A stretch of 50,616 bases of DNA, taken from positions 1 to 50,616 of the forward strand of contig JAUWPQ010000001.1 of NCBI GenBank assembly GCA_030611515.1, written 5' to 3'. Within the stretch, counting starts at the first letter, position 1, and every line of letters starts with the position of its first letter. Both the position numbers and the translations under genes were made by a program. Of this stretch, positions 3,424 through 40,866 are shown piece after piece. Origin of the DNA: Planctomycetota bacterium (GTDB lineage: Bacteria > Planctomycetota > Planctomycetia > Pirellulales > Thermoguttaceae). The notes beneath the pieces are model-generated. The model made no database searches. It was given only the letters and a program-made list of their open reading frames with translations, and had not been told where the DNA came from.

Positions 3424-4812
3424 CTACACAAGTTCCCGCTCGATCTGTTCCAATGTCTTGCCTTTGGTCTCCGGCAGGCGGAAGAAAATGAAGAAGAAAC
3501 CCGCCAGGCAGATTCCGGCGTAGAGCCAGAAGGTGTTGCCGATGCCGAGCGATTCTTTCAAGAGCGGAAAAGTGAAGGTCAAGACGAAACAGCCGGCCCA
3601 GAGCGCGAACACCGAGACCGACATCGCCGCTCCGCGAATCCGGTTGGGAAATATCTCGGAGAGGATTACCCAAACGACGGGGGCCAGAGTGCATGAGTAA
3701 CAGGCCATGGCCGTTAATACCAGGATCAAGATCGGAGTGCCCGTTACCTCGTAACGAAAGCTGCCGCCGATCAGAACGTAGATGACGGCCAATCCGGCGG
3801 CCCCGGCCAGCATCAGCGCGCGGCGCCCGATCCGGTCTACCGAAAAGATCGCCACGAAAGTAAACACCAGACAGACCGCGCCGGTGGCGATGATGTTCAG
3901 CAAGGTGTCGCTGACGCCGTAGTCGGCGGCGCGGAAGATTTCCTCCGCGTAATTGAATATCACGTTGATGCCGCACCATTGCTGGAACACCGCCAGCGTA
4001 ATGCCGAGCAGCAGAATCTTCCTCATCCTCGGTTTGAGCAACTCGCGGAAATCGACCTTCTCGATCTCACCCTCCAGCGTCTCCTCGATATCGGTCAACG
4101 CCCGCGCGGCATAGGCATCGCCTCCGATGCGGGCCAGAACATCGCGTGCTTTGTCGTGTTTCCCGTTCTTTGCCAACCACCGCGGACTTTCTGGAACGGC
4201 AAACATGAACACCAGGAAAAAAAGGGCGGGCACGGCGGTCACCCCAAACATCCAACGCCAACCCATCTGACCGTTCCACGATTGGAGAATTTCCAGGTCG
4301 GTCGCACCCTTGGCCACCGTTTCGGCGATCAGATAATTCACGATCTGAGCAGCCAGGATGCCCGTGATTATCGTCAACTGATTGACCGAGACGAACATCC
4401 CGCGCACCCGGGCGGGAGAAACCTCGGCGATGTACATGGGCGAAAGGGTCGAAGCCATGCCAATCGCCACTCCGCCCAGCAGGCGCCAGCAGACGAACGT
4501 GGAAAACGCGTTCGCCATACCCGTTCCGATCGATGTGACGGTAAACAGAAACGCGGCCAGGAGCAAGAGCCGCTTGCGGCCGAACTTGTCGCTCAACATG
4601 CCGGAGAGGATAGCGCCCAGCAAACATCCGACCAGGGCGCAACTGTTTGCCCAGCCCTTCTCGAAAGCGGAGGTCAGATGGAAGTATCGCTCGAAAAACG
4701 GCTTGGCGCCGCCGATAACCACCCAATCGTATCCGAACAACAGACCTCCCATCGCGGCCACCAGACAAATCCGCCAGATGTAACCCATGCGATAGTCGGT
4801 CTGCTTATGCAT
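3424..4812 (-). CDS. MFS sugar porter (xylose/arabinose-proton symporter-like)
   Basis: Sugar-porter signatures GGLLFGYDWVVIGGA, SDKFGRKR, PESPRWL and a PETKGKTLEQIE tail. ATG at 4812 (MHKQTDY...) is preferred over the longer track ORF. Confidence 0.85.
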   Translation of the reverse strand: MHKQTDYRMGYIWRICLVAAMGGLLFGYDWVVIGGAKPFFERYFHLTSAFEKGWANSCALVGCLLGAILSGMLSDKFGRKRLLLLAAFLFTVTSIGTGMANAFSTFVCWRLLGGVAIGMASTLSPMYIAEVSPARVRGMFVSVNQLTIITGILAAQIVNYLIAETVAKGATDLEILQSWNGQMGWRWMFGVTAVPALFFLVFMFAVPESPRWLAKNGKHDKARDVLARIGGDAYAARALTDIEETLEGEIEKVDFRELLKPRMRKILLLGITLAVFQQWCGINVIFNYAEEIFRAADYGVSDTLLNIIATGAVCLVFTFVAIFSVDRIGRRALMLAGAAGLAVIYVLIGGSFRYEVTGTPILILVLTAMACYSCTLAPVVWVILSEIFPNRIRGAAMSVSVFALWAGCFVLTFTFPLLKESLGIGNTFWLYAGICLAGFFFIFFRLPETKGKTLEQIERELV

Positions 4813-4874: not shown

Positions 4875-5393
4875 TTAACGACTGGGCGAGCAACGTTCAA
4901 GTCGTGGCAGCATTTTCTCAATCGCCCGTTCCACTTCCCGCGGATCGATGGTGGCGTCGCCGGCGGCGAAGGTCCGCCGCAAATTGCCTTGGCGGTCGTA
5001 GAGTCGCAGGTGTGGAAGGGCGCCGTCCTCGAGACGGAAGGCGGAAAAAGCCTCGGGGCCGACGCCGTAGCGGGCCAGATAGTTCTCCGTCGTCGCGCCG
5101 TGACGGCCGAGCAACCGGCGGACTGCCGATTCGTTGTCGGGATCGTCCAGACTGACGGTGACGACGACCAGCCCCAGAGCGCGGAAGCGGTTTTGCAACT
5201 CGATGGTGTGGGGCAGCATCTCCACGCACGGCCCGCACCACGTGGCCCAGAAGTCGACCAGCACCACCTTTCCCCGGTGTTTTTCCAGCAGTCGGTCCAG
5301 CGCCGGGGCGTCGATCTCCCGAAGCGGCGCCTCGGGAAGTGGTTTCGGTCGAGAATCTCTCCCGCACGCCAAGCAAACGAGGACCGCTGCCAT
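4875..5393 (-). CDS. TlpA/ResA-like thiol-disulfide oxidoreductase (thioredoxin fold)
   Basis: WATWCGPC active-site motif. Hydrophobic N-terminus MAAVLVCLACG from the ATG at 5393. The longer track ORF (to 5531) runs through a REP palindrome and is unlikely to be coding. Confidence 0.7.
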   Translation of the reverse strand: MAAVLVCLACGRDSRPKPLPEAPLREIDAPALDRLLEKHRGKVVLVDFWATWCGPCVEMLPHTIELQNRFRALGLVVVTVSLDDPDNESAVRRLLGRHGATTENYLARYGVGPEAFSAFRLEDGALPHLRLYDRQGNLRRTFAAGDATIDPREVERAIEKMLPRLERCSPSR

Positions 5394-6426: not shown

Positions 6427-8895
6427 ATGGCAGACAAGAGAGACGTCTTTGACAATGAGCCTCTGTCGCGCAACAACGAACCCCGGCTGTCGCACTCGCT
6501 GGACAAAGGACCGGACCCGAACAGCATCGGCGAGGCGCCCGTCGGGAAAAGAAGAGCGAGGGGGAAATCGAAGCAAGTTCCGTGGTTTAGGAACCCCGAG
6601 GTGATCAAGGTGGTGGTGGCCGGCGCGGTGGTGCTGGTGGTGGTGCTGATCGTTCTCGTTTGGCAGTTTGGATTGTTCGGCGGCTCAAGTCAGTCGAAAC
6701 CGCCGGTTGCCGCCGCGCAGCCGACCCCCCAACCGCCGCCGACCCTCGAGCCGCAGCAGCAGAACCCACAACTGTTGCCGCCGGAGGCTCAACCCACGCT
6801 GCCCGAGCAGAGACCGGTGCAAGAGCCGACTGTCGAGGAACCGCCTCAAGAGCAGAAGCCGCCCTTGCCCGAGAATGTCGCCGATTGGAAGGCGGACGAC
6901 TACTTCCGCGCGCGGCGTGAGAACGATCCGAAACTGCTGGAGGCGGTCGCTTATTTGGGCAAAACGTTCCCCGGCAAAAAGCCCGCAGCTGAAGGGTTGA
7001 CCAAGTTACTGAAGCCGCTTCCGCCCGAAAAGCCGGCGGAGCAGCCCGCCCCCGGCCGGAATCCGCCGGGCGTCGCGGGTGTCTTGCCGTCTGGCCCACC
7101 CGAGCTTGCGCCGCCCGGCGCGCCTGGCGCTACACTTCCTGGTGCTCCCGGCATTGCGCCGCCCGGCATGCAAGAGTTCGGACCCCCTGGCGCGCCAGGC
7201 ATTGTGCAGCCTCCTCCGGGCGGTCTACTTCCTCCGAACATCAATCGGCCCATTCCCGGCATGTCTCCTTACAATCCGGGAAACCTGGCGGGGCTGGTCG
7301 AGGCCATCGTCACCGCGCTGGGCAACAACGGCAGCGAGGTAGCCCAAAACACGATCGAACAAGTCCTCTCCGGCACGTTTAAGACGGACGACGACAAAGC
7401 GGCGGTGGAGGCGGCGTTAAAGGCGCTTTTGGCCCATCCCGGCCGGGAGAACGACGCCTTGATGCGCCGCGTTCTGACCGAGCCTGACGTCCTTCGCCCC
7501 AACGACCGCCAAGGGCCGTGGCCCGCGAAGGAATTGCAAGCCAAGGCGCTCGAGCTGACCAAGCAGTCCGCCTCCAGCGGACTCCGCCTCGAATTGGCCA
7601 AGGCCCTGGTCGAACATCGCGTGAAACTGGACCCCAAGGATCCGATGCACGAGTTCCTCTTGGCTTCCAATCCGCTCAATTGCAGCGCACAGTTGACGCT
7701 CTACGAGAAGGCCGACCTAACCCCGGAACTGAGGACAAGGTTGGAAGATCAGTTCCTGGTGTACAGTTCGTTTGCAATGGCCCGATATTTGGACATTCCC
7801 GACGAGTTTAAGCAGTCCACCTCCGGCGTCGGCGTCCCCGGCATGCACGCGGGACGGCCGGGCGGGTTAATCGGCGGGTTCGACCTGCCCGGCGATCGGT
7901 TGACCGGACCGGGACGCAATCCCGGCATGCTGCCCGGTATTTCGCCCGGCCCCGGCGGGAATGTCGGTTCTACGGCGGACAATCCGGACGACGAAGATTT
8001 GGCGCCGCGGTTGGCCGCCGGGCTGTGGTCCCAAGGATTCCTCGACTTGCTGGAGCCGAAGCTGACCACTCGCGCCCTGGACTCGCTGGAGAAAAAGCCG
8101 AAGTTGGTGTTGTTGGCCGGCACGATTCCCCAGGACTCCACCCGCGCATTGCTGAATACTCTGTTGCGCAAGCGTTGGAGCGAGGGGCCGAAGGCCCTGG
8201 AAACCGCCGGACTGACCGGGAATGTCGTTACCGATCCCGGGCTGTTGACGTTGATAAAAATGTTGCCTCGTAGAGGTCCCAAGGCGAAGGCCCGAGGTAC
8301 GCCAAGAGCGACGCGCCCCGCCGGGGGCGCCCTCAACAAGCGCATTGAAGAGGCACAAAAGAAACAGCGAACCGCGGAGGAGTGGATGGACCTCTCTTCC
8401 AGAATGGTCGCCGTGTGGTGTAATCGGTTCCACGCCGTCACTCAGGCCCGGCAGAAGGCCGCCGAGGATTCGGAGACCGACTCCCTGACGGTCCCGCTGA
8501 AGCTCCCCAAGGGTTTCGAGTTAAGTCCCAATGCCAGAGTGACCGCTTCTTTTCACTTGGTCTGGCCGGACGAAGCGCCGCCGGAGATTGCCAAGCTCAA
8601 TCCCGGTTGGCTGGAGGTGTATTACGTCCGCGTCGAGGAGGTCAACAAACTGCGGAAGGCCACGGCCTATTACAGCCGGCAAGCCGATCTCCGATCGTCC
8701 GACGCCCGGACCATCGACAAGAGCACCTGGTTCGACAACGTCCGGATAGGCTCGCAAAAGGACCGGCGTCGATCGCTCGACGTGCTGATTACTCCCCCCG
8801 AGAACTACGTCCCCGCCGACAAGCCCAGGGACGAGGACGAAACCGATTTGGTCATCGAAATCCTGTCGGTCGAGATCAAGGATCCGACCAAGTAG
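6427..8895 (+). CDS. hypothetical membrane-anchored protein with proline-rich linker
   Basis: ATG at 6427 is preceded by GGAGG. One TM helix (VIKVVVAGAVVLVVVLIVLVWQF), a long P/Q/E-rich stretch, then about 550 aa with no motif I recognise. The start is uncertain (the track ORF begins at 6163). Confidence 0.5.
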   Translation: MADKRDVFDNEPLSRNNEPRLSHSLDKGPDPNSIGEAPVGKRRARGKSKQVPWFRNPEVIKVVVAGAVVLVVVLIVLVWQFGLFGGSSQSKPPVAAAQPTPQPPPTLEPQQQNPQLLPPEAQPTLPEQRPVQEPTVEEPPQEQKPPLPENVADWKADDYFRARRENDPKLLEAVAYLGKTFPGKKPAAEGLTKLLKPLPPEKPAEQPAPGRNPPGVAGVLPSGPPELAPPGAPGATLPGAPGIAPPGMQEFGPPGAPGIVQPPPGGLLPPNINRPIPGMSPYNPGNLAGLVEAIVTALGNNGSEVAQNTIEQVLSGTFKTDDDKAAVEAALKALLAHPGRENDALMRRVLTEPDVLRPNDRQGPWPAKELQAKALELTKQSASSGLRLELAKALVEHRVKLDPKDPMHEFLLASNPLNCSAQLTLYEKADLTPELRTRLEDQFLVYSSFAMARYLDIPDEFKQSTSGVGVPGMHAGRPGGLIGGFDLPGDRLTGPGRNPGMLPGISPGPGGNVGSTADNPDDEDLAPRLAAGLWSQGFLDLLEPKLTTRALDSLEKKPKLVLLAGTIPQDSTRALLNTLLRKRWSEGPKALETAGLTGNVVTDPGLLTLIKMLPRRGPKAKARGTPRATRPAGGALNKRIEEAQKKQRTAEEWMDLSSRMVAVWCNRFHAVTQARQKAAEDSETDSLTVPLKLPKGFELSPNARVTASFHLVWPDEAPPEIAKLNPGWLEVYYVRVEEVNKLRKATAYYSRQADLRSSDARTIDKSTWFDNVRIGSQKDRRRSLDVLITPPENYVPADKPRDEDETDLVIEILSVEIKDPTK

Positions 8896-34433: not shown

Positions 34434-36026
34434 ATGAAATCAACATATATTCATCTCGCCGCCGGCCAACTGGCCGCTGAAGCGGCCAGCCCTCGTCTCG
34501 CCCCTCGCCCCTCGCCCCTCGCCCCTCTTTCCTGCCTGCTACTGATTCTGGCCGGGTGTCCCCGCCCCGAATCGGAACCGCAGCCCGGCCACGACCGTCT
34601 GCCGCTTGAGGGAGTGACGCTTCGGCTGGCCGTGGTTGACGATCCGGCGCTGGCGGCCGCCGTGGTTCAAGCGCGCGGAGAATGGAACGCACAAACCGGC
34701 GCGGAGCTTGAAGTTACGGAAATCTCGGAAAAAGAATTGGAACGGGCCGAAACGCTGCCGGCCGACGCCGTGCTCTGTCCCTCCCACACGCTGGGCATCC
34801 TCGCCGAACGGGACTTGATCGAACCAGTGCCGAAAAACATCATCCGCGGCGATCAGTGGAACGGCATCTTCGACTTGCCAAAACTCCGCGAAGCAGCTTG
34901 GGGGGGGCGGATCGTGGCCGTTCCGTTCGGCTCGCCGGTTTTCTGCTGCTACTACCGCGCCGACCTGCTGGAAAAACTCGGCCGCCGCCCGCCACGGACG
35001 TGGAGCGAGTATCGGGAACTGGCGGAGCTATTGGCGAAAAACTCCCCTCTCCCTTTGGGAAAAGGGCCGGAAGCAAACTCCCCTCTCCCTTTGGGAGAGG
35101 GGCCGGGGGTGAGGGCACCTTGGTCCGCCACAATCGAGCCGCTCGCCCCCGGCTGGGCCGGCTTGACGCTGCTGGCCCGGGCAGCGCCCTACGCAAAACA
35201 CCGCGACAATTTTTCCACGCTGTTCAACATCGAAACGATGGCGCCGTTGATTGCCGGAGAGCCTATAGTCCACGCGCTGGAAGAGCTTGTGGCCACGGCC
35301 GAACTGGGGCCTGATGATCCGTTTCAATTCGATCCGGCCAAGGTCCGTGCGGCGTTCCGGCGGGGCGAGTGCGGCATGGCGATCTCCTGGCCCACGGCCG
35401 CCGTTGAAGAGAGGGGAGAGGGGAGAGGGGGGAGGGGAGAGTTTGGAGGGCTGGCCGCTTCAGCGGCCAGTGATTCGGCCCGCGTCGGATTCGTCGAACT
35501 CCCCGGCTCGCGGCGGGTCTTCAACCTCTCCAAAAACGAGTGGGACAAACGAGCGGACGACGACGATCGCCATGTGCCGCTGCTGGCCGTGGCCGGCCAG
35601 ATGGGCGTGGTCGCCAAGGGATCGACCAATCGCAAGGCCGCTTTCCAGTTGCTCTTGTGGCTCTCCGACGACCGGATGAGTCCGCAGATCAGCGCGCTGA
35701 GTCCGGCGACGACCATGTTCCGCCAGTCGAACCTGGATGTTCCCGGCCAGTGGGTCGAAGAAACGGTCCTCCACGCCGCCGCGTCGCAATACGGCGAGGC
35801 GACCCTGGCCGCCTTCAGTCACGAGCAATGGCTCGGGGCCTTGCGTATCCCCGGCCGGGCGGAATATCTCGCCGCCTTGGACGAAGCGGTCGCGGCGGCC
35901 GTCCGCGGCGAGAAATCGGCTCAAGAAGCCCTGCAACAAGCCGAGACCAAATGGCGAGAAATCACCAACCGCCTCGGCCTCGACCGCCAAAAAGCCGCCT
36001 ATCGGCACAGCGTAGGACTGGAGTAA
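34434..36026 (+). CDS. ABC transporter extracellular solute-binding lipoprotein (family 1-like)
   Basis: ATG at 34434. Lipobox-like LLILAGC, and an SBP-like body (VPFGSPVFCCYYRADLLEKLG, WSEYRELAELL, ISWPTAA). It carries four in-frame repeat insertions. The stop codon TAA (36024-36026) is the first 3 nt of a REP copy. Confidence 0.65.
   Translation: MKSTYIHLAAGQLAAEAASPRLAPRPSPLAPLSCLLLILAGCPRPESEPQPGHDRLPLEGVTLRLAVVDDPALAAAVVQARGEWNAQTGAELEVTEISEKELERAETLPADAVLCPSHTLGILAERDLIEPVPKNIIRGDQWNGIFDLPKLREAAWGGRIVAVPFGSPVFCCYYRADLLEKLGRRPPRTWSEYRELAELLAKNSPLPLGKGPEANSPLPLGEGPGVRAPWSATIEPLAPGWAGLTLLARAAPYAKHRDNFSTLFNIETMAPLIAGEPIVHALEELVATAELGPDDPFQFDPAKVRAAFRRGECGMAISWPTAAVEERGEGRGGRGEFGGLAASAASDSARVGFVELPGSRRVFNLSKNEWDKRADDDDRHVPLLAVAGQMGVVAKGSTNRKAAFQLLLWLSDDRMSPQISALSPATTMFRQSNLDVPGQWVEETVLHAAASQYGEATLAAFSHEQWLGALRIPGRAEYLAALDEAVAAAVRGEKSAQEALQQAETKWREITNRLGLDRQKAAYRHSVGLE
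34469..34527. repeat. composite element: CTGGCCGCTGAAGCGGCCAGCCCTC hairpin plus (GCCCCTC)n tract, copy 1
   Basis: Same architecture as 38876..38944 (same orientation) and 35408..35470 (inverted). It lies in the signal-peptide n-region of the SBP. Confidence 0.8.
35041..35110. repeat. tandem pair of terminator-like hairpin units inside the SBP CDS
   Basis: ACTCCCCTCTCCCTTTGGGAAAAGGGCCGGAAG and ACTCCCCTCTCCCTTTGGGAGAGGGGCCGGGGG. The second unit forms CCCCTCTCCC-TTT-GGGAGAGGGG, the complement-loop version of the 13418 terminator stem. It is translated as NSPLPLGKGPEANSPLPLGEGPG. Confidence 0.8.
35408..35470. repeat. composite element, copy 2 (inverted): (GGGGAGA)n tract plus GAGGGCTGGCCGCTTCAGCGGCCAG
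   Basis: Reverse-complement architecture of 34469..34527. In frame in the SBP (EERGEGRGGRGEFGGLAASAAS). Confidence 0.8.
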
Positions 36027-36079
36027 ACGGGACAGGTCTAATTACCAACAGATTGCGAGCCTTTTGTCAGGATGCTCAC

Positions 36080-36143
36080 ATGCCGAGAACCGCACGTATT
36101 GCCCCTGGCGGAATGGTGTTCCACGTTCTCAACCGACGACGAA
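36080..36143 (+). pseudogene. truncated duplicate of the RAYT gene 5' end
   Basis: Part of a roughly 120-bp tandem duplication (36024-36143 versus 36144-36263). It encodes MPRTARIAPGGMVFHVLNR and then diverges. Confidence 0.7.
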
Positions 36144-36199
36144 TAAACGGGACAGGTCTAATTACCGACGGATTGCGAGTCTCTTGTTAGGATGCTCCC

Positions 36200-36889
36200 A
36201 TGCCAAGAACCGCACGCATTGCCCCTGGCGGGATGGTGTTCCACGTTCTCAACCGCGGCGTGGGGCGGATGAATCTGTTCGCTAAGGATGGCGACTATGA
36301 GGCGTTCGAGCGGAGCATCGAGAAGACGCTGGAAAGCTGCCCGATGCGTATCTGCGCCTACTGCTTGATGCCCAACCATTGGCACTTCGTATTTTGGCCG
36401 CAGCAGGACGGCGATCTGGGAGCTTTCATGCAGAAGCTTACCGTCACACACGTGCGTAATTGGCAAGAACATCGGCGGCGGGTTGGTTACGGACACGTGT
36501 ACCAAGGCCGCTATAAGTCGTTTCCGGTGGAGGCCGACGAGTATTTCTACCAGGTGATGCGTTACGTGGAGCGGAACGCCTTGCGGTCGAATCTCGTCGC
36601 CCGGGCCGAGGCATGGCGATGGGGCAGTCTGTGGCGTCGCGTGTGTGGCAAGCCTTCCGACCGCAAGTGGCTCAGCAAGTGGCCGCTGCCCATTCCGCGT
36701 GGCTGGAAAGACCTTGTCAACCAGCCACAAACGGAAGCCGAGTTGGAGGCGATTCGTCGGAGCGTGGCCCGAGGCCAGCCCTACGGCAACAACGCCTGGA
36801 GAAAACAAACCGCAAAGGATTTGGGGCTTGAATCGACGATGCGGCCCCGCGGACGGCCCTGGGACCGGGCGACAACACACGATAATTAG
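36200..36889 (+). CDS. REP-associated tyrosine transposase (RAYT; IS200/IS605-type Y1 transposase family)
   Basis: 229 aa. MVFHVLNRGV..., CAYCLMPNHWHFVFWP (HUH-like HWH), and GHVYQGRYKSFPVE (catalytic Tyr region). Flanked by inverted 21-nt repeats at 36144 and 36884. Confidence 0.8.
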   Translation: MPRTARIAPGGMVFHVLNRGVGRMNLFAKDGDYEAFERSIEKTLESCPMRICAYCLMPNHWHFVFWPQQDGDLGAFMQKLTVTHVRNWQEHRRRVGYGHVYQGRYKSFPVEADEYFYQVMRYVERNALRSNLVARAEAWRWGSLWRRVCGKPSDRKWLSKWPLPIPRGWKDLVNQPQTEAELEAIRRSVARGQPYGNNAWRKQTAKDLGLESTMRPRGRPWDRATTHDN

Positions 36890-36914
36890 ACCTGTCCCGT
36901 TTATTTCGCCTCGT

Positions 36915-37841
36915 TTATTTCGCCTTGGGGTACCGGATGCCAATTGAAACCGCCGCTTGGCCCGGCACCATCCCCATCTCAATCGTAGCCCCGTCCGCCA
37001 TTAACCCAACAAAACCTTCTTCGATCGTCTTGTCGGCACCAGTGATCACACGGTCGGGCGGTAATTCTGCAAGGCCACACTCGTCTATCGTTCGCAGCAG
37101 TTCGGCAGTGGAAGTCAAAAACCACTCCCTGCCAAGGGAAGCCGGACTTCTTCTACCGAGTGATCGCAGTCGCTTATGGACCTGTGTTTCTAAGTGCCTT
37201 CCATCCCAGGTACTAAACACAAGAAGCACTTTTGGTTTTTCCGGGAAACCGGCTCTTTCAACAATCTGCGACCGGATTCGACCGAAGGCACCATCGCAAG
37301 AGTTCTTCGAGAAGCCGACCTTGACCGGATAGTGTTCGTCACGCCTGACTGTCGCCAACTCGATCAAGGATGGGAATGTAAAAGCATACAAATCCTGATC
37401 GCCGACGCCTTTGAAAATCGTCTCCGATATTGTGAGGTATTCGCCGTAGTACTTTGCAATCCAGCTTTCACGGCACGTTGCAGCGACCAGTGGATCTGCA
37501 TCAAATCGCGTGTTCCGATTTTGTACGATCAGTTCGTCTGCGACGGCTCTCACAGAATCCTCGGTTACTCGTTGAAAGGCGCATCGCTTCAGACGAAGTT
37601 TCTGTCCCGCATCGAATATTACATCTGCAAATGTATAGCCGTCGGTCGTTTCGGAAATTGTCCAACCCAGTGCTCCAATGTGGAGTTCAGCGCCGTAGGA
37701 TCGGAGATCGTGAACCAGCACGATTCGTTCGCGGTTCTCAACGTCGAGGCACAAGCGGCCACCAATGTCGTACGTATGCAAATAGCCATTGACGATCTCG
37801 CGCCGTGAAATTTTCGGTAGTGGCTTCGATTTTGTAGCCAA
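36915..37841 (-). CDS. hypothetical protein: unassigned N-terminal domain plus C-terminal T5orf172/MUG113-like (GIY-YIG superfamily) domain
   Basis: 308 aa with a TTG start. The C-terminal half (LYAFTFPSL...YPVKVGFSKNS...GRIRSQ...LLVFSTWDGRHLETQVHKRLRS...GREWFLTSTAELLRTI) follows the T5orf172 pattern. The N-terminal 150 or so residues are unrecognised. The domain call was made by eye only. Confidence 0.55.
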   Translation of the reverse strand: MATKSKPLPKISRREIVNGYLHTYDIGGRLCLDVENRERIVLVHDLRSYGAELHIGALGWTISETTDGYTFADVIFDAGQKLRLKRCAFQRVTEDSVRAVADELIVQNRNTRFDADPLVAATCRESWIAKYYGEYLTISETIFKGVGDQDLYAFTFPSLIELATVRRDEHYPVKVGFSKNSCDGAFGRIRSQIVERAGFPEKPKVLLVFSTWDGRHLETQVHKRLRSLGRRSPASLGREWFLTSTAELLRTIDECGLAELPPDRVITGADKTIEEGFVGLMADGATIEMGMVPGQAAVSIGIRYPKAK

Positions 37842-37960
37842 GATTCTTCCAATCTGTTGGGGCCGAATGACAGGGATGATCAGGTGGCCGGGAGCGAGCC
37901 AGCCATCCCGAAAACTTCAGCTACCGGCCACTCTGGTCTATCCCTTGTTCGACGAGCGTC

Positions 37961-38482
37961 CTATGAACGCCCAAGTAGAGTACGCGCCTCGTTTCCTATG
38001 GCATCAGCAAGCACCTTATGCAGACGTTGGAGTTCATTGTGTTGAGCCTGGAAACCCGCTTGATCTAATACGCCAAGGCGTGTTGCCAATGACTGTGGAG
38101 ATAATAGCAACTCTGGTGGTTGGTGATCGGCGTCGACAAAGTGACGGAGTGCCCATGAATGATACGATCGTAGTTTCGCCGTGTATTCCGATACCGCGGT
38201 TTGTAGACCAGGGAAATACAGAATGGTCAAGGATTCTAAGGGAAAGAAAGCGATGGCCGGATGCGTATTGGCGCTGTCTTGAAATGCAGTTGTCCCTTCA
38301 AAATGCTCTCGCCATTCCGTTGTCTGCCGCAGCGCCAGAGTCAGATCTTCGAGCTTCTGAAGCAGCGTGGTGGTTCGTCTGTGTTTGCGTTCAAGCCACG
38401 ATGAAAGCATGGAGACGGATGCGCCAATGGCCGTGCCAACGATGGCGGCGGATGCGGCGATGATCGCGGGCCAGTAGTCCAT
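37961..38482 (-). CDS. hypothetical single-pass membrane protein
   Basis: 173 aa with an ATG start. N-terminal helix YWPAIIAASAAIVGTAIGASVSMLSSWL followed by a basic stretch (ERKHRR). The rest is helical-looking with no known motif. It lies 119 nt upstream of, and co-directional with, 36915..37841. Confidence 0.5.
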   Translation of the reverse strand: MDYWPAIIAASAAIVGTAIGASVSMLSSWLERKHRRTTTLLQKLEDLTLALRQTTEWREHFEGTTAFQDSANTHPAIAFFPLESLTILYFPGLQTAVSEYTAKLRSYHSWALRHFVDADHQPPELLLSPQSLATRLGVLDQAGFQAQHNELQRLHKVLADAIGNEARTLLGRS

Positions 38483-38592
38483 CGTTGTGTCCTTCCTGCT
38501 CGTCGAACTTACCCTGTATCACGAATTCCAGCAACCTGAGTATAACAAGGCTCAAGGGCGAGTAAACGGGCGAGTAAACGGTAAACGAACGG

Positions 38593-38714
38593 TAAACGGG
38601 ACAGGTCTAATTATCGCGTACTATTCCAAAAACCGTGCGAACGGCCTGTAACAAATGGCTTTCCTGATGCGGGCCGTCGCAAAGGAACGTAATAATTAGA
38701 CCTGTCCCGTTTAC
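38593..38714. repeat. REP doublet of the RAYT-associated 21-mer
   Basis: TAAACGGGACAGGTCTAATTA (38593-38613) and TAATTAGACCTGTCCCGTTTA (38694-38714), separated by 80 nt. Preceded by degenerate GTAAACG tandem copies (38562-38592). Confidence 0.85.
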
Positions 38715-38721
38715 TCGTCCG

Positions 38722-38863
38722 CGAAGCGGTCGCGGCGGCCGTCCGCGGCGAGAAAGCGGCTCAAGAAGCCCTGCAACAAGCCGAGACCAAATGGCGAGAA
38801 ATCACCAACCGCCTCGGCCTCGACCGCCAAAAAGCCGCATACCGACACAGCGTGGGGCTATAA
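38722..38863 (+). repeat. duplicated 3' end of the SBP gene (orphan copy)
   Basis: Aligns to 35882-36026. It reads EAVAAAVRGEKAAQEALQQAETKWREITNRLGLDRQKAAYRHSVGL-stop in frame. The first 110 or so nt have 1 mismatch. The last 9 codons differ at 6 third positions, all synonymous. Confidence 0.85.
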
Positions 38864-38875
38864 AATCGTCGATTG

Positions 38876-38944
38876 CTGGCCGCTAAAGCGGCCAGCCCTC
38901 CGATCCCTTCTCCCTCTTCCCTCCTCTCTCTTCTCTCTTCACCC
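38876..38944. repeat. composite element, copy 3: CTGGCCGCTAAAGCGGCCAGCCCTC hairpin plus polypyrimidine tract
   Basis: Same orientation as copy 1 (34469). It abuts the stop codon of the cyclase gene (38944-38946). Confidence 0.8.
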
Positions 38945-40866
38945 TATTTGCTTGCCAGCGGGATCACCCCGTCCCAGTCCGGGGGCGGGCGGCGGTTGTG
39001 CTGGGCGATGTGGACCACCAGAAAATCCTTCACCTGGTCCGCCGCCGGGATGCGGTGCAATAACTCGAACGCCTGCTGCCATTTGCCCGATAGAAAAGCA
39101 TCGAGCGCCGCTTCGTAAAACTCCAAGTGCTCGTCGGTCAATTCGGGGTACTCCGAAACGGGCGGCAGCAGTTCGCTGACCTCCAGCGGCGTGTCCAATC
39201 CGTAGGGGCGCACGATTGCCAACCGCCGCACCCGGGCAATGTCGCGCGGTACTTCTTGGCGAACGATCCGCGCCGTGGCCTCGTCCAGCAGAATGGAGGC
39301 CTGAATGATCTTGGTCATCCCCTCGAGCCGCGAGGCAAGATTCACCACCGGGCCGAAGACGGTCACCTTCACCTGATCGACGGTGCCGATTTTGCCCGCC
39401 ACGGCCGGACCGGTGGCCACTCCGATTCCGGTTCGGAACCCGGTTGCGGCCTCGAACTCGGCGCGGACGGCCAACGCCGCGCGGCAGGTGCGCAGGACGG
39501 CGTCCTTTTGCGGCAGCGGCCAGCCCCAGAATCCCATCGCGGCGTCGCCTTGGAAATCGCCCACCACGCCCCCTTGCTCGCGGATGTGGTGGGTCATCAC
39601 GCCCAAGGCTTTGCTCACTCGCCGCAGCAGTCCGAGCAGGTCGCCTGCCTGACGTTCCGACTCGCGCGAGAAGCCGCGGAGATCGCAGAAAATCACCGAA
39701 ACCTCCGTCTCGCGCGGCGCGAGAACCACTTCTGGGTCTTCGTCGGCCAGCGAGTCGAGCACCACTGGCGAGAAGAACTGGCTGAGCGTGGCCTGGCGAT
39801 GCTCCAGCAGCCGCATCTGCCGCAACGAACTGAGCATGGCCGCCACCAACTCGGTGAACTTTACGTCCTCGCGCAGATCGGTGGGATCGGAGGAAGGTGT
39901 CGCGTCGGACTGCTCGACGTTGAACCGTCCGGCCACGTATAGCCCCCAGCCCCGGCAAGCCTTGCCCAGCACCGGCGTGCAAAAGGCCCAATCGAACGTG
40001 TCGCTGGCAGTGTACGAATCGGGCAAGGCCGAGGCCGCGCCGCGCCAGACGTGCAACACACTCTGACCTTGTCGCAACGATTCAAGGATAAGGCCCTGGC
40101 TAGGGCGAAAATTGCTGGTGATCGCCAGCCGCTGGTCCCAGTGGAGAACGAGGGGCGGGGGGCGGGGGGCGGGGGATTGGGGGTGGGAGGCGGGGGAGGA
40201 GGGAAGAGAGAAGGGTGAAGAGGGAAGAGAGAATCGGGGTGATTGAGGATTCTCTTCGCGTCCTCCGGCTCTTCTTTCTTCTCTCTTCTCTCCTCTCTCT
40301 TCTCTCTTCCCTCTTCCCTCGTCCCCCGTTCCCCGCCCCTCCTCAACGGCCACCACCGCCGCGGCGTCGGCACGGGGCACGCCCGCCAATATCATGCTCA
40401 CCAGCCGCACGAAAAGCTCCTTGTCGCCGGTCGCCCCGGAAATCACGTCCGGCAGCCGGCTGAGCACCTCGATGCGATGGTCGGGATTGCGGAACTGGAC
40501 TCCCTTGAGGTATTGCGCGCTGAACGACTGTTGTTGAACCGGGGCGGGCTGATCGACCGTAACGTCCACCTGCTGATCGGCCAGCGTGAAGGTGGTTTGC
40601 CCAACGACGAAATGTTCGCCGGGCGAAAGCTCGAACCGCTCGGCCTCCTTTCCGTGCAGAAAGACGGGGTTTTTCGCTTCCGGCAGCCGTTGGACCTCCA
40701 GCCGCCGACCGTTCCACGAGAGACCGACGTGCCGGCGCGAGACCTGGTGGTCCCAGGGCACGGCCCAAACGCCGCCGAACCTTCCCAGAACGATCTCCTG
40801 CCCCTCGGGCAGCGGCCGCCGCCAACGTTGTTGAGCTTCGGTTCCTTGTGCAATCAGGTCGGGCAT
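38944..40866 (-). CDS. FHA-domain adenylate/guanylate cyclase (class III)
   Basis: N-terminal FHA pattern (IVLGRFGG...VSRRHVGLSWNGRRLEVQRL...NPVFLHG). C-terminal CYCc (VIFCDLRGFS...GDFQGDAAMGFWGWP...GIGVATGPAVAGKIG...VFGPVVNLASRLEG). A low-complexity insert of about 65 aa separates the two domains. Confidence 0.8.
   Translation of the reverse strand: MPDLIAQGTEAQQRWRRPLPEGQEIVLGRFGGVWAVPWDHQVSRRHVGLSWNGRRLEVQRLPEAKNPVFLHGKEAERFELSPGEHFVVGQTTFTLADQQVDVTVDQPAPVQQQSFSAQYLKGVQFRNPDHRIEVLSRLPDVISGATGDKELFVRLVSMILAGVPRADAAAVVAVEEGRGTGDEGRGKREERGEKREERRAGGREENPQSPRFSLPSSPFSLPSSPASHPQSPAPRPPPLVLHWDQRLAITSNFRPSQGLILESLRQGQSVLHVWRGAASALPDSYTASDTFDWAFCTPVLGKACRGWGLYVAGRFNVEQSDATPSSDPTDLREDVKFTELVAAMLSSLRQMRLLEHRQATLSQFFSPVVLDSLADEDPEVVLAPRETEVSVIFCDLRGFSRESERQAGDLLGLLRRVSKALGVMTHHIREQGGVVGDFQGDAAMGFWGWPLPQKDAVLRTCRAALAVRAEFEAATGFRTGIGVATGPAVAGKIGTVDQVKVTVFGPVVNLASRLEGMTKIIQASILLDEATARIVRQEVPRDIARVRRLAIVRPYGLDTPLEVSELLPPVSEYPELTDEHLEFYEAALDAFLSGKWQQAFELLHRIPAADQVKDFLVVHIAQHNRRPPPDWDGVIPLASK
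40150..40344. repeat. roughly 195-bp imperfect palindrome of polypurine then polypyrimidine tracts, in frame in the cyclase CDS
   Basis: GAGGGGCGGGGGGCGGGG...GGGAAGAGAGAAGGGTGAAGAGGGAAGAGAGAATC, centre, then GATTCTCTTCGCG...CTCTCTTCCCTCTTCCC...CCCCGCCCCTCCTC. It is translated as EEGRGTGDEGRGKREERGEKREERR...SLPSSPFSLPSSPA. Confidence 0.8.

Follow-up and report, generated by a model that had tools for sequence, protein, structure and literature searches.

A second solute-binding-protein gene end at the resident site of a RAYT-like transposase in a planctomycete turnover hot spot

Introduction

The question raised by this locus is how a bacterial gene came to have two 3' ends with a transposase gene between them. 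The gene encodes a solute-binding protein (SBP) of a Planctomycetota bacterium (Thermoguttaceae). The stretch of DNA that we analysed, called the window below, comprises 50,616 nt of a single metagenomic contig (GCA_030611515.1, contig JAUWPQ010000001.1, positions 1-50,616, forward strand). Downstream of the SBP gene lie a Y1 transposase gene, copies of a 21-nt repeat, two cargo genes and a second copy of the last SBP codons, followed by a convergent cyclase gene (Table 1). We refer to the functional gene end as tail 1 and to the orphan copy as tail 2. A first-pass annotation had explained the arrangement by a 2.7-kb insertion, with a transposase of the REP-associated tyrosine transposase type (RAYT; REP, repetitive extragenic palindrome) as its only recombinase, that probably brought along a homologous gene end from a previous host.

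We interpret the locus as the home site of a RAYT-like Y1 transposase flanked by terminal inverted repeats (TIRs), a "TIRtron", in the convergent gap between the SBP and cyclase genes. That a RAYT carried kilobases of DNA and rebuilt a gene end is not supported by our analysis and seems improbable to us. The best reading we can offer, put forward tentatively, is that a templated duplication took place locally at repeat boundaries and that recombination later introduced a short tract of a diverged allele. The locus would add a TIR-flanked RAYT to those described, situated in a hot spot of gene turnover where recombination left an orphan gene end as its scar.

The transposase is an old resident at the SBP stop codon

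We compared the window with five syntenic SBP-to-cyclase loci (loci retrieved for comparison are designated L, SBP orthologs P), namely L048 together with L085, L033, L118, L119/L120 and L105, whose SBP 3' regions are 95%, 92%, 91%, 89% and 80% identical to that of the window, respectively. In L048, L033 and L119, the SBP gene ends in CTA GAR TAA-ACGG and is followed by the 21-mer and an orthologous transposase gene at the same nucleotide. L118 retains GAGTAAACGG and, of the transposase gene, the 3'-terminal 200 nt. L105, in which the SBP gene ends in GAG TAA AC, lacks the transposase and has one lone 21-mer, which adjoins the cyclase stop. Identity of the transposase to the window copy is 96.1% in L048, 96.1-96.4% in L033 (96% at the nucleotide level in both) and 93.6-94.3% in L119, compared to 95.3%, 92.4% and 89.3% for the SBP and about 94% for the cyclase. 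Because these identities track those of the flanks, the transposase appears to be an old resident and not a newcomer. The alignment of the loci shows the transposase and the 21-nt repeat at the SBP stop since, by this comparison, before the split of these lineages. The syntenic site, and a divergence that parallels that of the flanks in four genomes, are compatible with vertical descent; L046, a locus outside this series, has nested copies.

These data do not agree with an arrival of the transposase together with the insertion, as a full or remnant copy that has co-diverged with the flanks is present at the same stop in four relatives. Nor did we find the empty site anticipated in close relatives. 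Such a site would read SBP-(GL-stop)-AATCGTCGATTG-cyclase without repeats, and all five syntenic loci carry repeats. In none of the five does the SBP gene run straight into the sequence that follows tail 2 (the 38864 region). A second SBP tail, sought in the relatives as an alternative, is likewise absent from all five.

The genes on the cyclase side of the transposase differ in every genome. We found a 189-aa membrane open reading frame (ORF), a partial left-end fragment and a SEC-C protein in L033; ORFs of 298 and 176 aa, DUF2442 and DUF4160 in L119; a 136-aa ORF and DUF2442 in L118; and, between SBP and cyclase, SEC-C and a leucine-rich repeat (LRR) protein in L105. Repeat doublets separate most of these genes. 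Gene content across the series thus shows the transposase-to-cyclase interval to be a turnover hot spot punctuated by hairpin-forming doublets. The L105 SBP gene (P0007) has a one-base frameshift at about 3505-3520, near where the duplicated tail of the window begins, which may be a long-read assembly error.

The functional gene end carries the diverged tract

The two tails align over 138 nt with 96% identity (35882-36019 vs 38722-38859). Over the 139 aligned positions of 35882-36020 and 38722-38860, seven differences were found. One of them, at 35916, is a TCG Ser codon in tail 1 and a GCG Ala codon in tail 2; the other six (35999, 36002, 36005, 36014, 36017 and 36020) are all synonymous and at third codon positions. 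Six of the seven fall within the last 22 nt (hypergeometric P = 5e-5; ~0.002 when corrected for scanning), and upstream of this patch the tails differ at 1 of 117 nt. The last eight shared codons read GCC TAT CGG CAC AGC GTA GGA CTG in tail 1 and GCA TAC CGA CAC AGC GTG GGG CTA in tail 2. Tail 1 ends in CTG GAG TAA, with the first 21-mer starting on the TAA, and tail 2 ends in CTA TAA, with the Glu codon absent; an in-frame TAA TAA is located upstream of tail 2 at 38689-38694. The tail repeat, the six synonymous changes, the Ser/Ala change, the extra Glu codon and the use of the repeat TAA at 36024 as SBP stop had all been noted in the first-pass annotation, and our alignment agrees on each.

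The relatives help to polarise these differences. Upstream of 35999, both tails have the three sites that separate the window from L048. Private changes of tail 2 are the synonymous CGA and the non-synonymous Ser-to-Ala change at a conserved Ser/Thr (35916), and its GCA is, among the five relatives, common only to the closest, L048. In the patch of the functional gene (TATCGGCACAGCGTAGGACTGGAGTAAACGG), 5/8 third positions differ from L048, compared to 7.6% in the rest of the gene (P ~1e-4), and 4/8 differ from L033 (P = 0.006). Its TAT, GTA, GGA and CTG codons depart from the majority of the relatives, GTA and GGA being unique. On this comparison, the orphan tail 2 keeps the lineage's own end, and it is the functional gene that carries a short tract of a more diverged functional allele. 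The same comparison makes tail 2 young: the resident gene was its template, and the copying postdates the separation from L048. The patch would not have arrived with the transposase, because the latter shows no excess divergence (96% identity to its counterparts in the relatives). Since the transposase is not divergent and the patch strongly so, at least two separate events would be required, the creation of tail 2 and the recoding of the tail 1 end. The earlier idea that a coding-constrained foreign gene end replaced the resident one is thereby supported by the outgroup comparison over 22 nt, but not as a single arrival of an element plus foreign tail.

A scan of Joint Genome Institute (JGI) metagenomes with a 29-mer common to the tails of four relatives gave 0 matches. 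A degenerate tail pattern retrieved only four distant orthologs, with no close relative and no empty site among them. A paralog was rejected as the origin of tail 2 or of the patch, as none is present in the window or in any retrieved locus. We also rejected a surrogate hairpin at the tail start, as shuffled sequences fold at least as well.

Most of the 27 SBP orthologs examined, down to 58% identity, end in GLE-stop, as does the window protein (...HSVGLE-stop); P0008, P0010 and P0011 end in GL-stop. In the distant metagenomic orthologs L128, L130 and L131, GAA TAA is followed by unrelated sequence without the repeat. The Glu codon and stop are native and predate the repeat, which overlaps the stop, because repeat-free distant orthologs have GAR TAA. 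For the same reason, we rejected the idea that the element supplied the Glu codon and the stop. In the fourth distant ortholog, L129, a variant 21-mer, TAAACCGGACAGGTTTAATTA, overlaps the SBP stop (position 211), and GTAG-footed classical REP hairpins directly follow the SBP stop in L131 (~1800-2100, oriented).

The 21-nt repeat and its transposase

The repeat TAAACGGGACAGGTCTAATTA occurs exactly at 36024(+), 36144(+), 38593(+), 36883(-) and 38693(-). No further copy was found in the window even at 3 mismatches, and 0 are expected (100 shuffles). Five copies bounding AT-richer DNA had been reported before, which is correct except that both inverted copies are shifted by one base to 36883 and 38693. 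The inverted repeats in the window pair over 21-37 nt, and the outermost ones pair across 24 nt as a perfect inverted repeat, GAG/CTC included. On its own, the 21-mer shows no folding (-0.5 kcal/mol, z = +0.6), and a GTAG foot is missing, so that it does not qualify as a REP. In contrast to the lone repeat, the doublet at 38593-38713 folds in single-stranded DNA as a 136-nt hairpin (-39.7 kcal/mol, z = -9.2). Its spacer is 80-93% conserved in L033, L085, L032 and L042.

The transposase matches Pfam Y1_Tnp over residues 13-126 (6.8e-12), and its translation contains H60-W-H62, W88-Q89 and Y122-V-E-R-N126, with Ala where Pro is expected after Asn. Its score against NCBIfam REP_Tyr_transpos (NF047646), 60.4 bits, is under the cut-off of 80. 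A PDB sequence search (phmmer) with the transposase found no relative, and PADLOC returned nothing for it. The gene is bracketed by inverted 21-mers at 36144 and 36883, and the repeat is also dispersed. From these sequence features, we classify the transposase as a RAYT-like TIRYT and the 21-mer as its terminal inverted repeat. A Y1 enzyme of the HUH (histidine-hydrophobic-histidine) superfamily and RAYT type, flanked by inverted 21-mers, is indeed the sole recombinase-like gene, as had been proposed. Pfam and NCBIfam yield Y1_Tnp and T5orf172 only between the tails, and no tyrosine or serine site-specific recombinase.

The 18-nt core of the repeat was found in more than 117 exact-match stretches at the least, nearly all of them in Planctomycetota. 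Among the matches listed are Pirellulales, Thermoguttaceae, Gemmataceae, Planctomycetaceae, Phycisphaeraceae and a few oddly labelled bins, and several of the metagenome-assembled genomes listed hold multiple 18-mer loci. About 30 of the at least 117 listed loci also carry a transposase homolog (69-78% DNA identity); in other genomes, members of the family are only 70-80% identical. The core CGGGACAG matches 7/8 positions of GGGGWSAS. Whether the 21-mer is a genome-wide repeat or tied to this junction had been posed as a test: it is spread across Planctomycetota, yet it is tied to the SBP junction in all close relatives. The transposase family numbers more than 7,800 proteins at the least (E <= 1e-40), with 70-80% amino acid identity in many lineages. 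Most of the family members listed are on contigs of ~1 kb, as expected were assemblies breaking at repeats. Exact copies of the 18-mer are also present in bins that carry the labels Psychroserpens, Chromatiales, Thermodesulfobacteriota, Tepidiformaceae and Rickettsiales (L043, L056/L096, L065, L107 and L117), and L096 (labelled Chromatiales) has a transposase homolog of 74% identity. These bins contain either mis-binned planctomycete DNA or horizontally transferred copies.

Left of the transposase unit, a 120-nt repeat (36021-36135 vs 36141-36255; 21-mer, leader and first 20 transposase codons) is 91% identical between its two copies. The partial left-end module shares the derived states CCTTTTGT and GGCGGAATGG with a partial copy at L033 2660-2760 and not with the adjacent gene. 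Judged from these shared states, the module belongs to a separate, older lineage, and it probably came in with the patch. A fresh tandem duplication was rejected as the origin of the 120-nt repeat, since the partial copy shares derived states with the partial copy of L033.

The outer-end TAA of the repeat, or of a stutter copy of it, is the stop of five ORFs in the syntenic arrays, the SBP gene included (window 36024 and 36915-36917; L033 2643-2645; L119 9228-9230 and 9968-9970). Over all loci, the repeat TAA closes frames of >=200 codons in 12/141 repeats, compared to 8/282 in the other two frames (P = 0.014). The stutters themselves are tandem duplications of 11-15 nt, composed of a few flank bases and the outermost TAAACGG, and are found at many repeat outer ends (window 36898-36925 and 38556-38598; L119 7494-7520; L033 3625-3715; L046 ~2141-2165; L118 2565-2585). 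The unit in L119 consists of the last SBP codons and TAAACGG. Stutters may mark a position of nicking or slippage. Across 225 repeat copies from all loci, a weak G-rich outer consensus, GGGGCAAW, precedes TAAACGG, and the native SBP end GGGGCTAGARTAA (window 36012-36026) resembles it. This likeness may explain insertion at the SBP stop in two distant lineages, the clade of the window and L129. Three of the recoded tail 1 positions (GTA GGA CTG) break the G run.

Cargo genes and duplications at repeat ends

The DNA between the tails had been taken as foreign, and is so by composition (GC 0.49-0.56 over 36900-38600 vs 0.62-0.68 in the flanks, in line with the AT-richness noted earlier) and in being different in every relative. 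However, while the low-GC cargo is unique to the lineage of the window, the transposase in the same interval co-diverges with the flanks, and the patch does not. The cargo lies outside both repeat-bounded units (transposase unit 36144-36903; doublet 38593-38713), the outer ends of which both face it. For the T5orf172 protein, 63 homologs were found. Same-strain copies of the gene have the same arrangement as in the window, and no 21-mers were detected near homologs of 82-83% identity at the three loci examined in other genomes (L124-126). The claim that a RAYT moved 2.7 kb as a unit finds no support here, given that the cargo lies outside the repeat pair of the transposase and that T5orf172 homologs lack 21-mers. 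PADLOC and NCBIfam returned nothing for either cargo protein.

T5orf172 and the 173-aa ORF form a low-GC gene pair (36915-38482) without a defence-system match. In L126, the T5orf172 homolog (6789-7520) is ~0.8 kb from a protein with a Toll/interleukin receptor domain, which hints at a defence-island context. Cassette sharing was rejected, as the 173-aa ORF of the window is unrelated to the 176-aa ORF of L119. We also set aside T5orf172 as a homing endonuclease whose target had become immune by recoding, because this genome still has the unrecoded version in tail 2 and T5orf172 homologs in other places are not beside SBP genes.

Other loci contain duplications at repeat ends as well. In L001 (112 nt, 4150-4261 vs 7863-7974, with patchy similarity past the stop) and L093 (42 nt, 3540-3581 vs 5102-5143), a 5'-truncated 3' end of a neighbouring gene abuts a repeat outer end, in the same orientation and on the far side of the array from the parent gene. 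The copy in L006 (45 nt, 100% identical, 4207-4251 vs 6660-6704), which also abuts a repeat outer end, is a gene-interior piece from 2.4 kb away. L046 (1755-3475) contains a whole transposase unit inside another copy, together with a flanking direct duplication of 141 nt (98.6% identity). In L018 (7144-8000), the transposase 3' region restarts with 100% identity right after its own right repeat and stutter; partial re-starts of the transposase gene at repeat ends are present in both L018 and L046. Most repeat outer flanks (188/206) are without a local duplicate, and with the enrichment being weak, we rejected the idea that the repeat regularly goes along with long target duplications.

Origin of the duplicated gene end

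We tentatively favour an origin in two local steps. In the first, DNA synthesis or repair would have stalled or broken at the outer end of the distal doublet and switched template to 35882 inside the SBP gene, 2.84 kb upstream. From there, 139 nt would have been copied up to the proximal repeat boundary, just before GAG-TAAACGG, until a switch back ended the copying. The product would be a non-coding orphan tail, with the doublet on one side of it and the native intergenic hairpin on the other. In the second step, a homologous-recombination tract from a more diverged allele would have overwritten at least the last 22 nt of the functional tail and brought, or come with, the adjacent 120-nt partial left-end module. 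We propose that the differences cluster and are synonymous because such a tract overwrote the functional end. The SBP protein would have remained unchanged, with the repeat merely overlapping the native TAA, and the role of the transposase would at most be to cause breaks at repeat ends; it would not have carried kilobases of cargo. The orphan copy is bounded on both sides by repeat boundaries, and the doublet is a strong hairpin in single-stranded DNA. Comparable local copies at repeat outer ends in L006, L001, L093, L046 and L018, and the short stutters at many repeat ends, also speak for it. A duplication in situ needs one event for tail 2 and no array-less ancestor. Several points speak against this proposal. 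An intermediate genome was not found and neither step was directly observed; a donor of the patch was sought and not found. No microhomology is assignable at either tail 2 junction, and the junction between 38721 and 38722 is backed by one contig alone. Tail 2 has no GAG and continues with TAAAATCG, which an array-less resident allele explains at least as easily. The outer flanks of repeats show only a weak excess of local duplicates (18/206 vs 17/399 for random segments, P = 0.04), and several of the 18 are not independent.

An array-less allele is central to an alternative that we consider unlikely, though not negligible, namely 3'-end displacement by homology-anchored import into a close relative whose SBP gene ended in GL-stop and was followed by the hairpin and the cyclase gene. 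The incoming DNA (SBP tail, repeat, transposase, cargo and doublet) would have crossed over inside the tail, and its doublet end would have been joined illegitimately 139 nt upstream of the stop, pushing the resident tail downstream as an orphan, as in rhs, contact-dependent inhibition (CDI) and type VI secretion system (T6SS) loci. The topology corresponds to that of orphaned 3' regions ascribed to homology-facilitated illegitimate recombination (PMC5361080). By outgroup comparison, the orphan starts with a piece of the gene body and keeps the older, resident-type 3' end, and the functional end is of foreign type, as displacement would leave them. Tail 2 runs directly into plausible native intergenic DNA with a terminator-like hairpin, its lack of GAG would be accounted for, orthologs ending in GL-stop exist (P0008, P0010 and P0011), and the orphan tails of L001 and L093 are likewise in the same orientation on the far side of their arrays. 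However, import requires the prior precise loss, within ~1.4% divergence, of an array that is full or residual in five relatives, none of which has an empty site. As the patch has diverged strongly but the transposase is not foreign, the patch would still require an event of its own, which makes three rather than two. We regard it as improbable that the transposase itself catalysed the event, by a Y1 cut at the doublet outer end and at a surrogate SBP site between TTGGA and CGAAG. The enzyme would then have transferred tail and array together to the corresponding site in a naive chromosome, or have inserted the array with a staggered target duplication of very great length. A RAYT-like enzyme would thereby carry kilobase cargo and preserve the end of its target gene, and we know of no kilobase-cargo or gene-end-preserving activity of RAYTs. 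Such catalysis is suggested by the duplication copies, which abut both outer repeat ends of the 24-nt perfect inverted repeat, by the nested unit of L046, the duplication of which (141 nt, 98.6%) is nearly as long as that of the window, and by the flanking duplications in L001 (112 nt) and L093 (42 nt). The excess of repeat TAAs on long-ORF stops (12/141 vs 8/282, P = 0.014) suggests a sequence-directed insertion site. Yet the SBP-repeat-transposase junction is ancestral and tail 2 young, so that the array would have to leave and re-enter at the same nucleotide. Furthermore, 188/206 repeat flanks have no flanking duplication, the cargo is outside the repeat pair of the transposase, and the mosaic pattern of the tails is left unexplained. 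RAYTs are also described, in PMC6006769 and bioRxiv 10.1101/2020.03.09.984088, as not moving in a typical transposon structure.

The sharp border between the near-identical and the diverged stretch, in direct repeats 2.8 kb apart in one molecule, would also be expected if an old duplication from the original insertion had lately been homogenised by gene conversion over its first 117 nt, with the last 22 nt left diverged. We judge this very unlikely: the unconverted end of tail 2 is not old (GCA shared only with L048 among the five relatives, one private substitution), the divergence is on the functional copy and purely synonymous, and none of the five relatives retains the orphan. At a slightly lower probability still, co-occurring array-bearing and array-less strains could have been threaded into a chimeric contig. 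The locus comes from a single metagenomic contig, three same-strain contigs from other samples span only 36130-38658 and stop at repeats without ever reaching the tail 2 junction, and look-ups for this junction, made via a 45-aa antisense ORF and the cyclase protein, found no independent contig across it on record. The two sides of the junction, CTCGTCCG and CGAAGCGG, have no sequence in common, however, so that a graph assembler would need truly spanning reads. The seven differences suffice to keep the tails apart, and similar structures are found in independent assemblies of other genomes. Finally, tail 2 is in gene orientation and ends in a stop codon, as would the remnant of a decayed tandem SBP paralog, but its 99% identity to tail 1 over 117 nt with shared window-specific states, its start exactly at the repeat end and the absence of a paralog from the window and every syntenic relative leave this origin hardly any credence.

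Comparison with known systems

TIRtrons are RAYT-like genes (TIRYT) flanked by long non-REP inverted repeats, many of which share GGGGWSAS and occur as dimers or clusters (Di Nocera et al. 2013, PMC3733652). Planctomycetes (R. baltica) are already singled out there as rich in TIRYT genes and repeats. Subclass 2.1 of Quentin et al. 2018 (PMC6006769) has a median protein length of 238 aa and HuH, WQ and Y---N(P) signatures. The window protein is of similar size (229 aa) with HuH, WQ and Y---N motifs, its gene is flanked by an inverted, non-palindromic repeat that elsewhere occurs as dimers and clusters, and this repeat holds CGGGACAG, one base off GGGGWSAS, in agreement with the TIRtron definition. 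Four features set our locus apart: many families of the phylum share an unchanged 21-nt repeat, the transposase is at one syntenic site in several species, this site has variable accessory genes, and an orphan 3' end of the neighbouring gene abuts the distal repeat. Term searches of the available text of PMC3733652 and PMC6006769 returned no mention of these four.

The apparently vertical transposase and the non-autonomous, inverted hairpin doublets, extragenic between convergent genes, resemble REP doublet (REPIN)-RAYT systems. However, the single repeat of the window is non-palindromic and without a GTAG foot, the protein is under the NCBIfam equivalog cut-off, and the doublet spacers of 70-80 nt are conserved between species. 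REPIN-RAYT systems are reportedly known from Pseudomonas and Enterobacteria through work of Bertels and Rainey in 2011 and of Bertels and colleagues in 2017. IS200/IS605 elements have a TnpA of ~150 aa and distinct subterminal hairpins, cause no target duplication, lack inverted repeats and occur as high-identity multicopy elements. The window does not match them, with a 229-aa protein, Y---N instead of Y---Q, inverted-repeat ends and homologs that are 70-80% identical.

The orphan tail itself recalls rhs, CDI and T6SS loci, where C-terminal displacement leaving orphan 3' ends at rhs loci is said to have been reported by Jackson and colleagues in 2009. Here, too, a working 3' end is kept, and a 5'-truncated orphan with a gene-body start and the older end lies downstream of the arrived DNA. 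In contrast, those loci swap distinct toxin tips with immunity genes, whereas the same peptide less one Glu is encoded here, the orphan abuts a transposase repeat, and the main gene on the cargo side, the transposase, is not foreign. For T6SS orphan 3' ends, one homologous anchor and an illegitimate join have been proposed (Kirchberger et al. 2017, PMC5361080). As in integrative elements, direct repeats of a gene 3' end surround AT-richer DNA in the window and the gene is intact. However, there is no integrase, no empty site in relatives and no occurrence of the element as a unit elsewhere, and the repeat is a 139-nt mosaic, not a short identical core. Some integrative elements target and rebuild gene or tRNA 3' ends by means of a tyrosine or serine integrase. 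An integron-like array is suggested by doublets between ORFs and by five ORFs ending in TAA-ACGG, but no cassette is shared, there is no IntI, and the SEC-C gene is native in L105 without repeats. In picocyanobacteria, a TnpA-REP subgroup was found beside hypervariable prochlorosin clusters, and its activity was proposed to drive local diversification (Laurenceau et al., bioRxiv 10.1101/2020.03.09.984088). Our locus is similar in that a subgroup tied to inverted repeats, not REPs, is next to locally hypervariable genes; in the picocyanobacteria, however, inverted repeats were not detected, the variable genes all belong to a single family, and the authors later withdrew the causal claim.

If the ordinary reading holds, the locus would be a well-documented, repeat-rich convergent intergenic hot spot that left an orphan gene end. 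It offers a syntenic series of five genomes, with a transposase that stays in place and surroundings that all change, and a 21-nt repeat held invariant across a phylum. The flank duplications at repeat ends (window, L001, L093 and L046) are substrates for testing cutting by TIR-type RAYTs and local rearrangement. RAYT nicking at repeat ends could even drive accessory-gene capture and turnover at the home locus, including insertions that duplicate 40-180 nt of a neighbour and thereby leave the 3' end of the neighbouring gene whole. We consider this improbable; if true, it would amount to an HUH-enzyme-driven, integron- or rhs-like platform conserved across Planctomycetota.

Layout of the locus and a second repeat family

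The features of the locus are compiled in Table 1. SBP orthologs reach up to 88% amino acid identity. An Rfam search of 35800-39000 returned no family.

Table 1 Features of the SBP-cyclase interval in the window
Feature	Position	Strand	Evidence or remark
SBP (solute/sugar-binding-protein) gene, 538 aa	34410..36026	+	Pfam SBP_bac_1 3.8e-13; convergent with cyclase gene
Tail 1, functional last 46 SBP codons, copied downstream	35882..36020	+	138-139 nt direct repeat with 38722-38860
Recoded patch, six synonymous third-position differences from tail 2	35999..36020	+	Alignment with relatives
TIR copy 1; its TAA is the SBP stop codon	36024..36044	+	Exact 21-mer match
Partial left-end module: leader and first 20 RAYT codons, then linker GACGACGAA	36045..36143	+	91% identical to 36165-36255
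TIR copy 2, left repeat of transposase unit	36144..36164	+	Exact 21-mer match
RAYT-like/TIRYT Y1 HUH transposase gene, 229 aa	36200..36889	+	Pfam Y1_Tnp 6.8e-12
TIR copy 3, right repeat of transposase unit, overlaps transposase stop	36883..36903	-	Exact match, inverted pair
Stutter, CGTTTATTTCGCCT twice in tandem (TIR outer end and flank)	36898..36925	.	Second copy gives TAA stop of minus-strand T5orf172 gene
Cargo gene 1, T5orf172 (GIY-YIG-like) domain protein, 308 aa	36915..37841	-	Pfam T5orf172 1.4e-5
Cargo gene 2, 173-aa ORF, no family match	37961..38482	-	Pfam/NCBIfam/PADLOC; co-linear with cargo gene 1 in same-strain contig L122
Stutter repeats GGGCGAGTAAAC x2.2 and AACGGTAAACG x2 at doublet outer end	38556..38598	.	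Sequence reading
REPIN-like TIR doublet, two inverted 21-mers and 79-nt spacer	38593..38713	.	Inverted-repeat search, folding
CTCGTCCG, extended outer end of doublet, directly against tail 2	38714..38721	.	Same 8-mer after a doublet in L119 (9405-9420)
Tail 2, 5'-truncated non-coding orphan copy of SBP 3' end, ends CTA TAA	38722..38863	+	Direct repeat
Palindrome CTGGCCGCTAAAGCGGCCAG and CT-rich repeats between tail 2 and cyclase stop	38876..38943	.	Hairpin z = -5
Adenylate/guanylate cyclase-domain gene, conserved right flank	38944..40866	-	Pfam Guanylate_cyc 1.7e-9; syntenic in L033, L085, L105, L118

Finally, we identified a second repeat family, a palindrome CTGGCCGC-N4-GCGGCCAG beside heptad repeats (CTCGCCC, GAGAGGG, CT-rich), at 34470-34527, 35409-35470 and 38876-38943, and also at 35040-35115; two copies are in frame in the SBP ORF. 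Similar GA/CT-rich blocks are present inside the cyclase ORF (40150-40340). The low-complexity inserts encoded by this family vary in length among the SBP orthologs P0002-P0005, and the family recalls in-frame palindromic elements such as the Rickettsia palindromic elements (RPEs).

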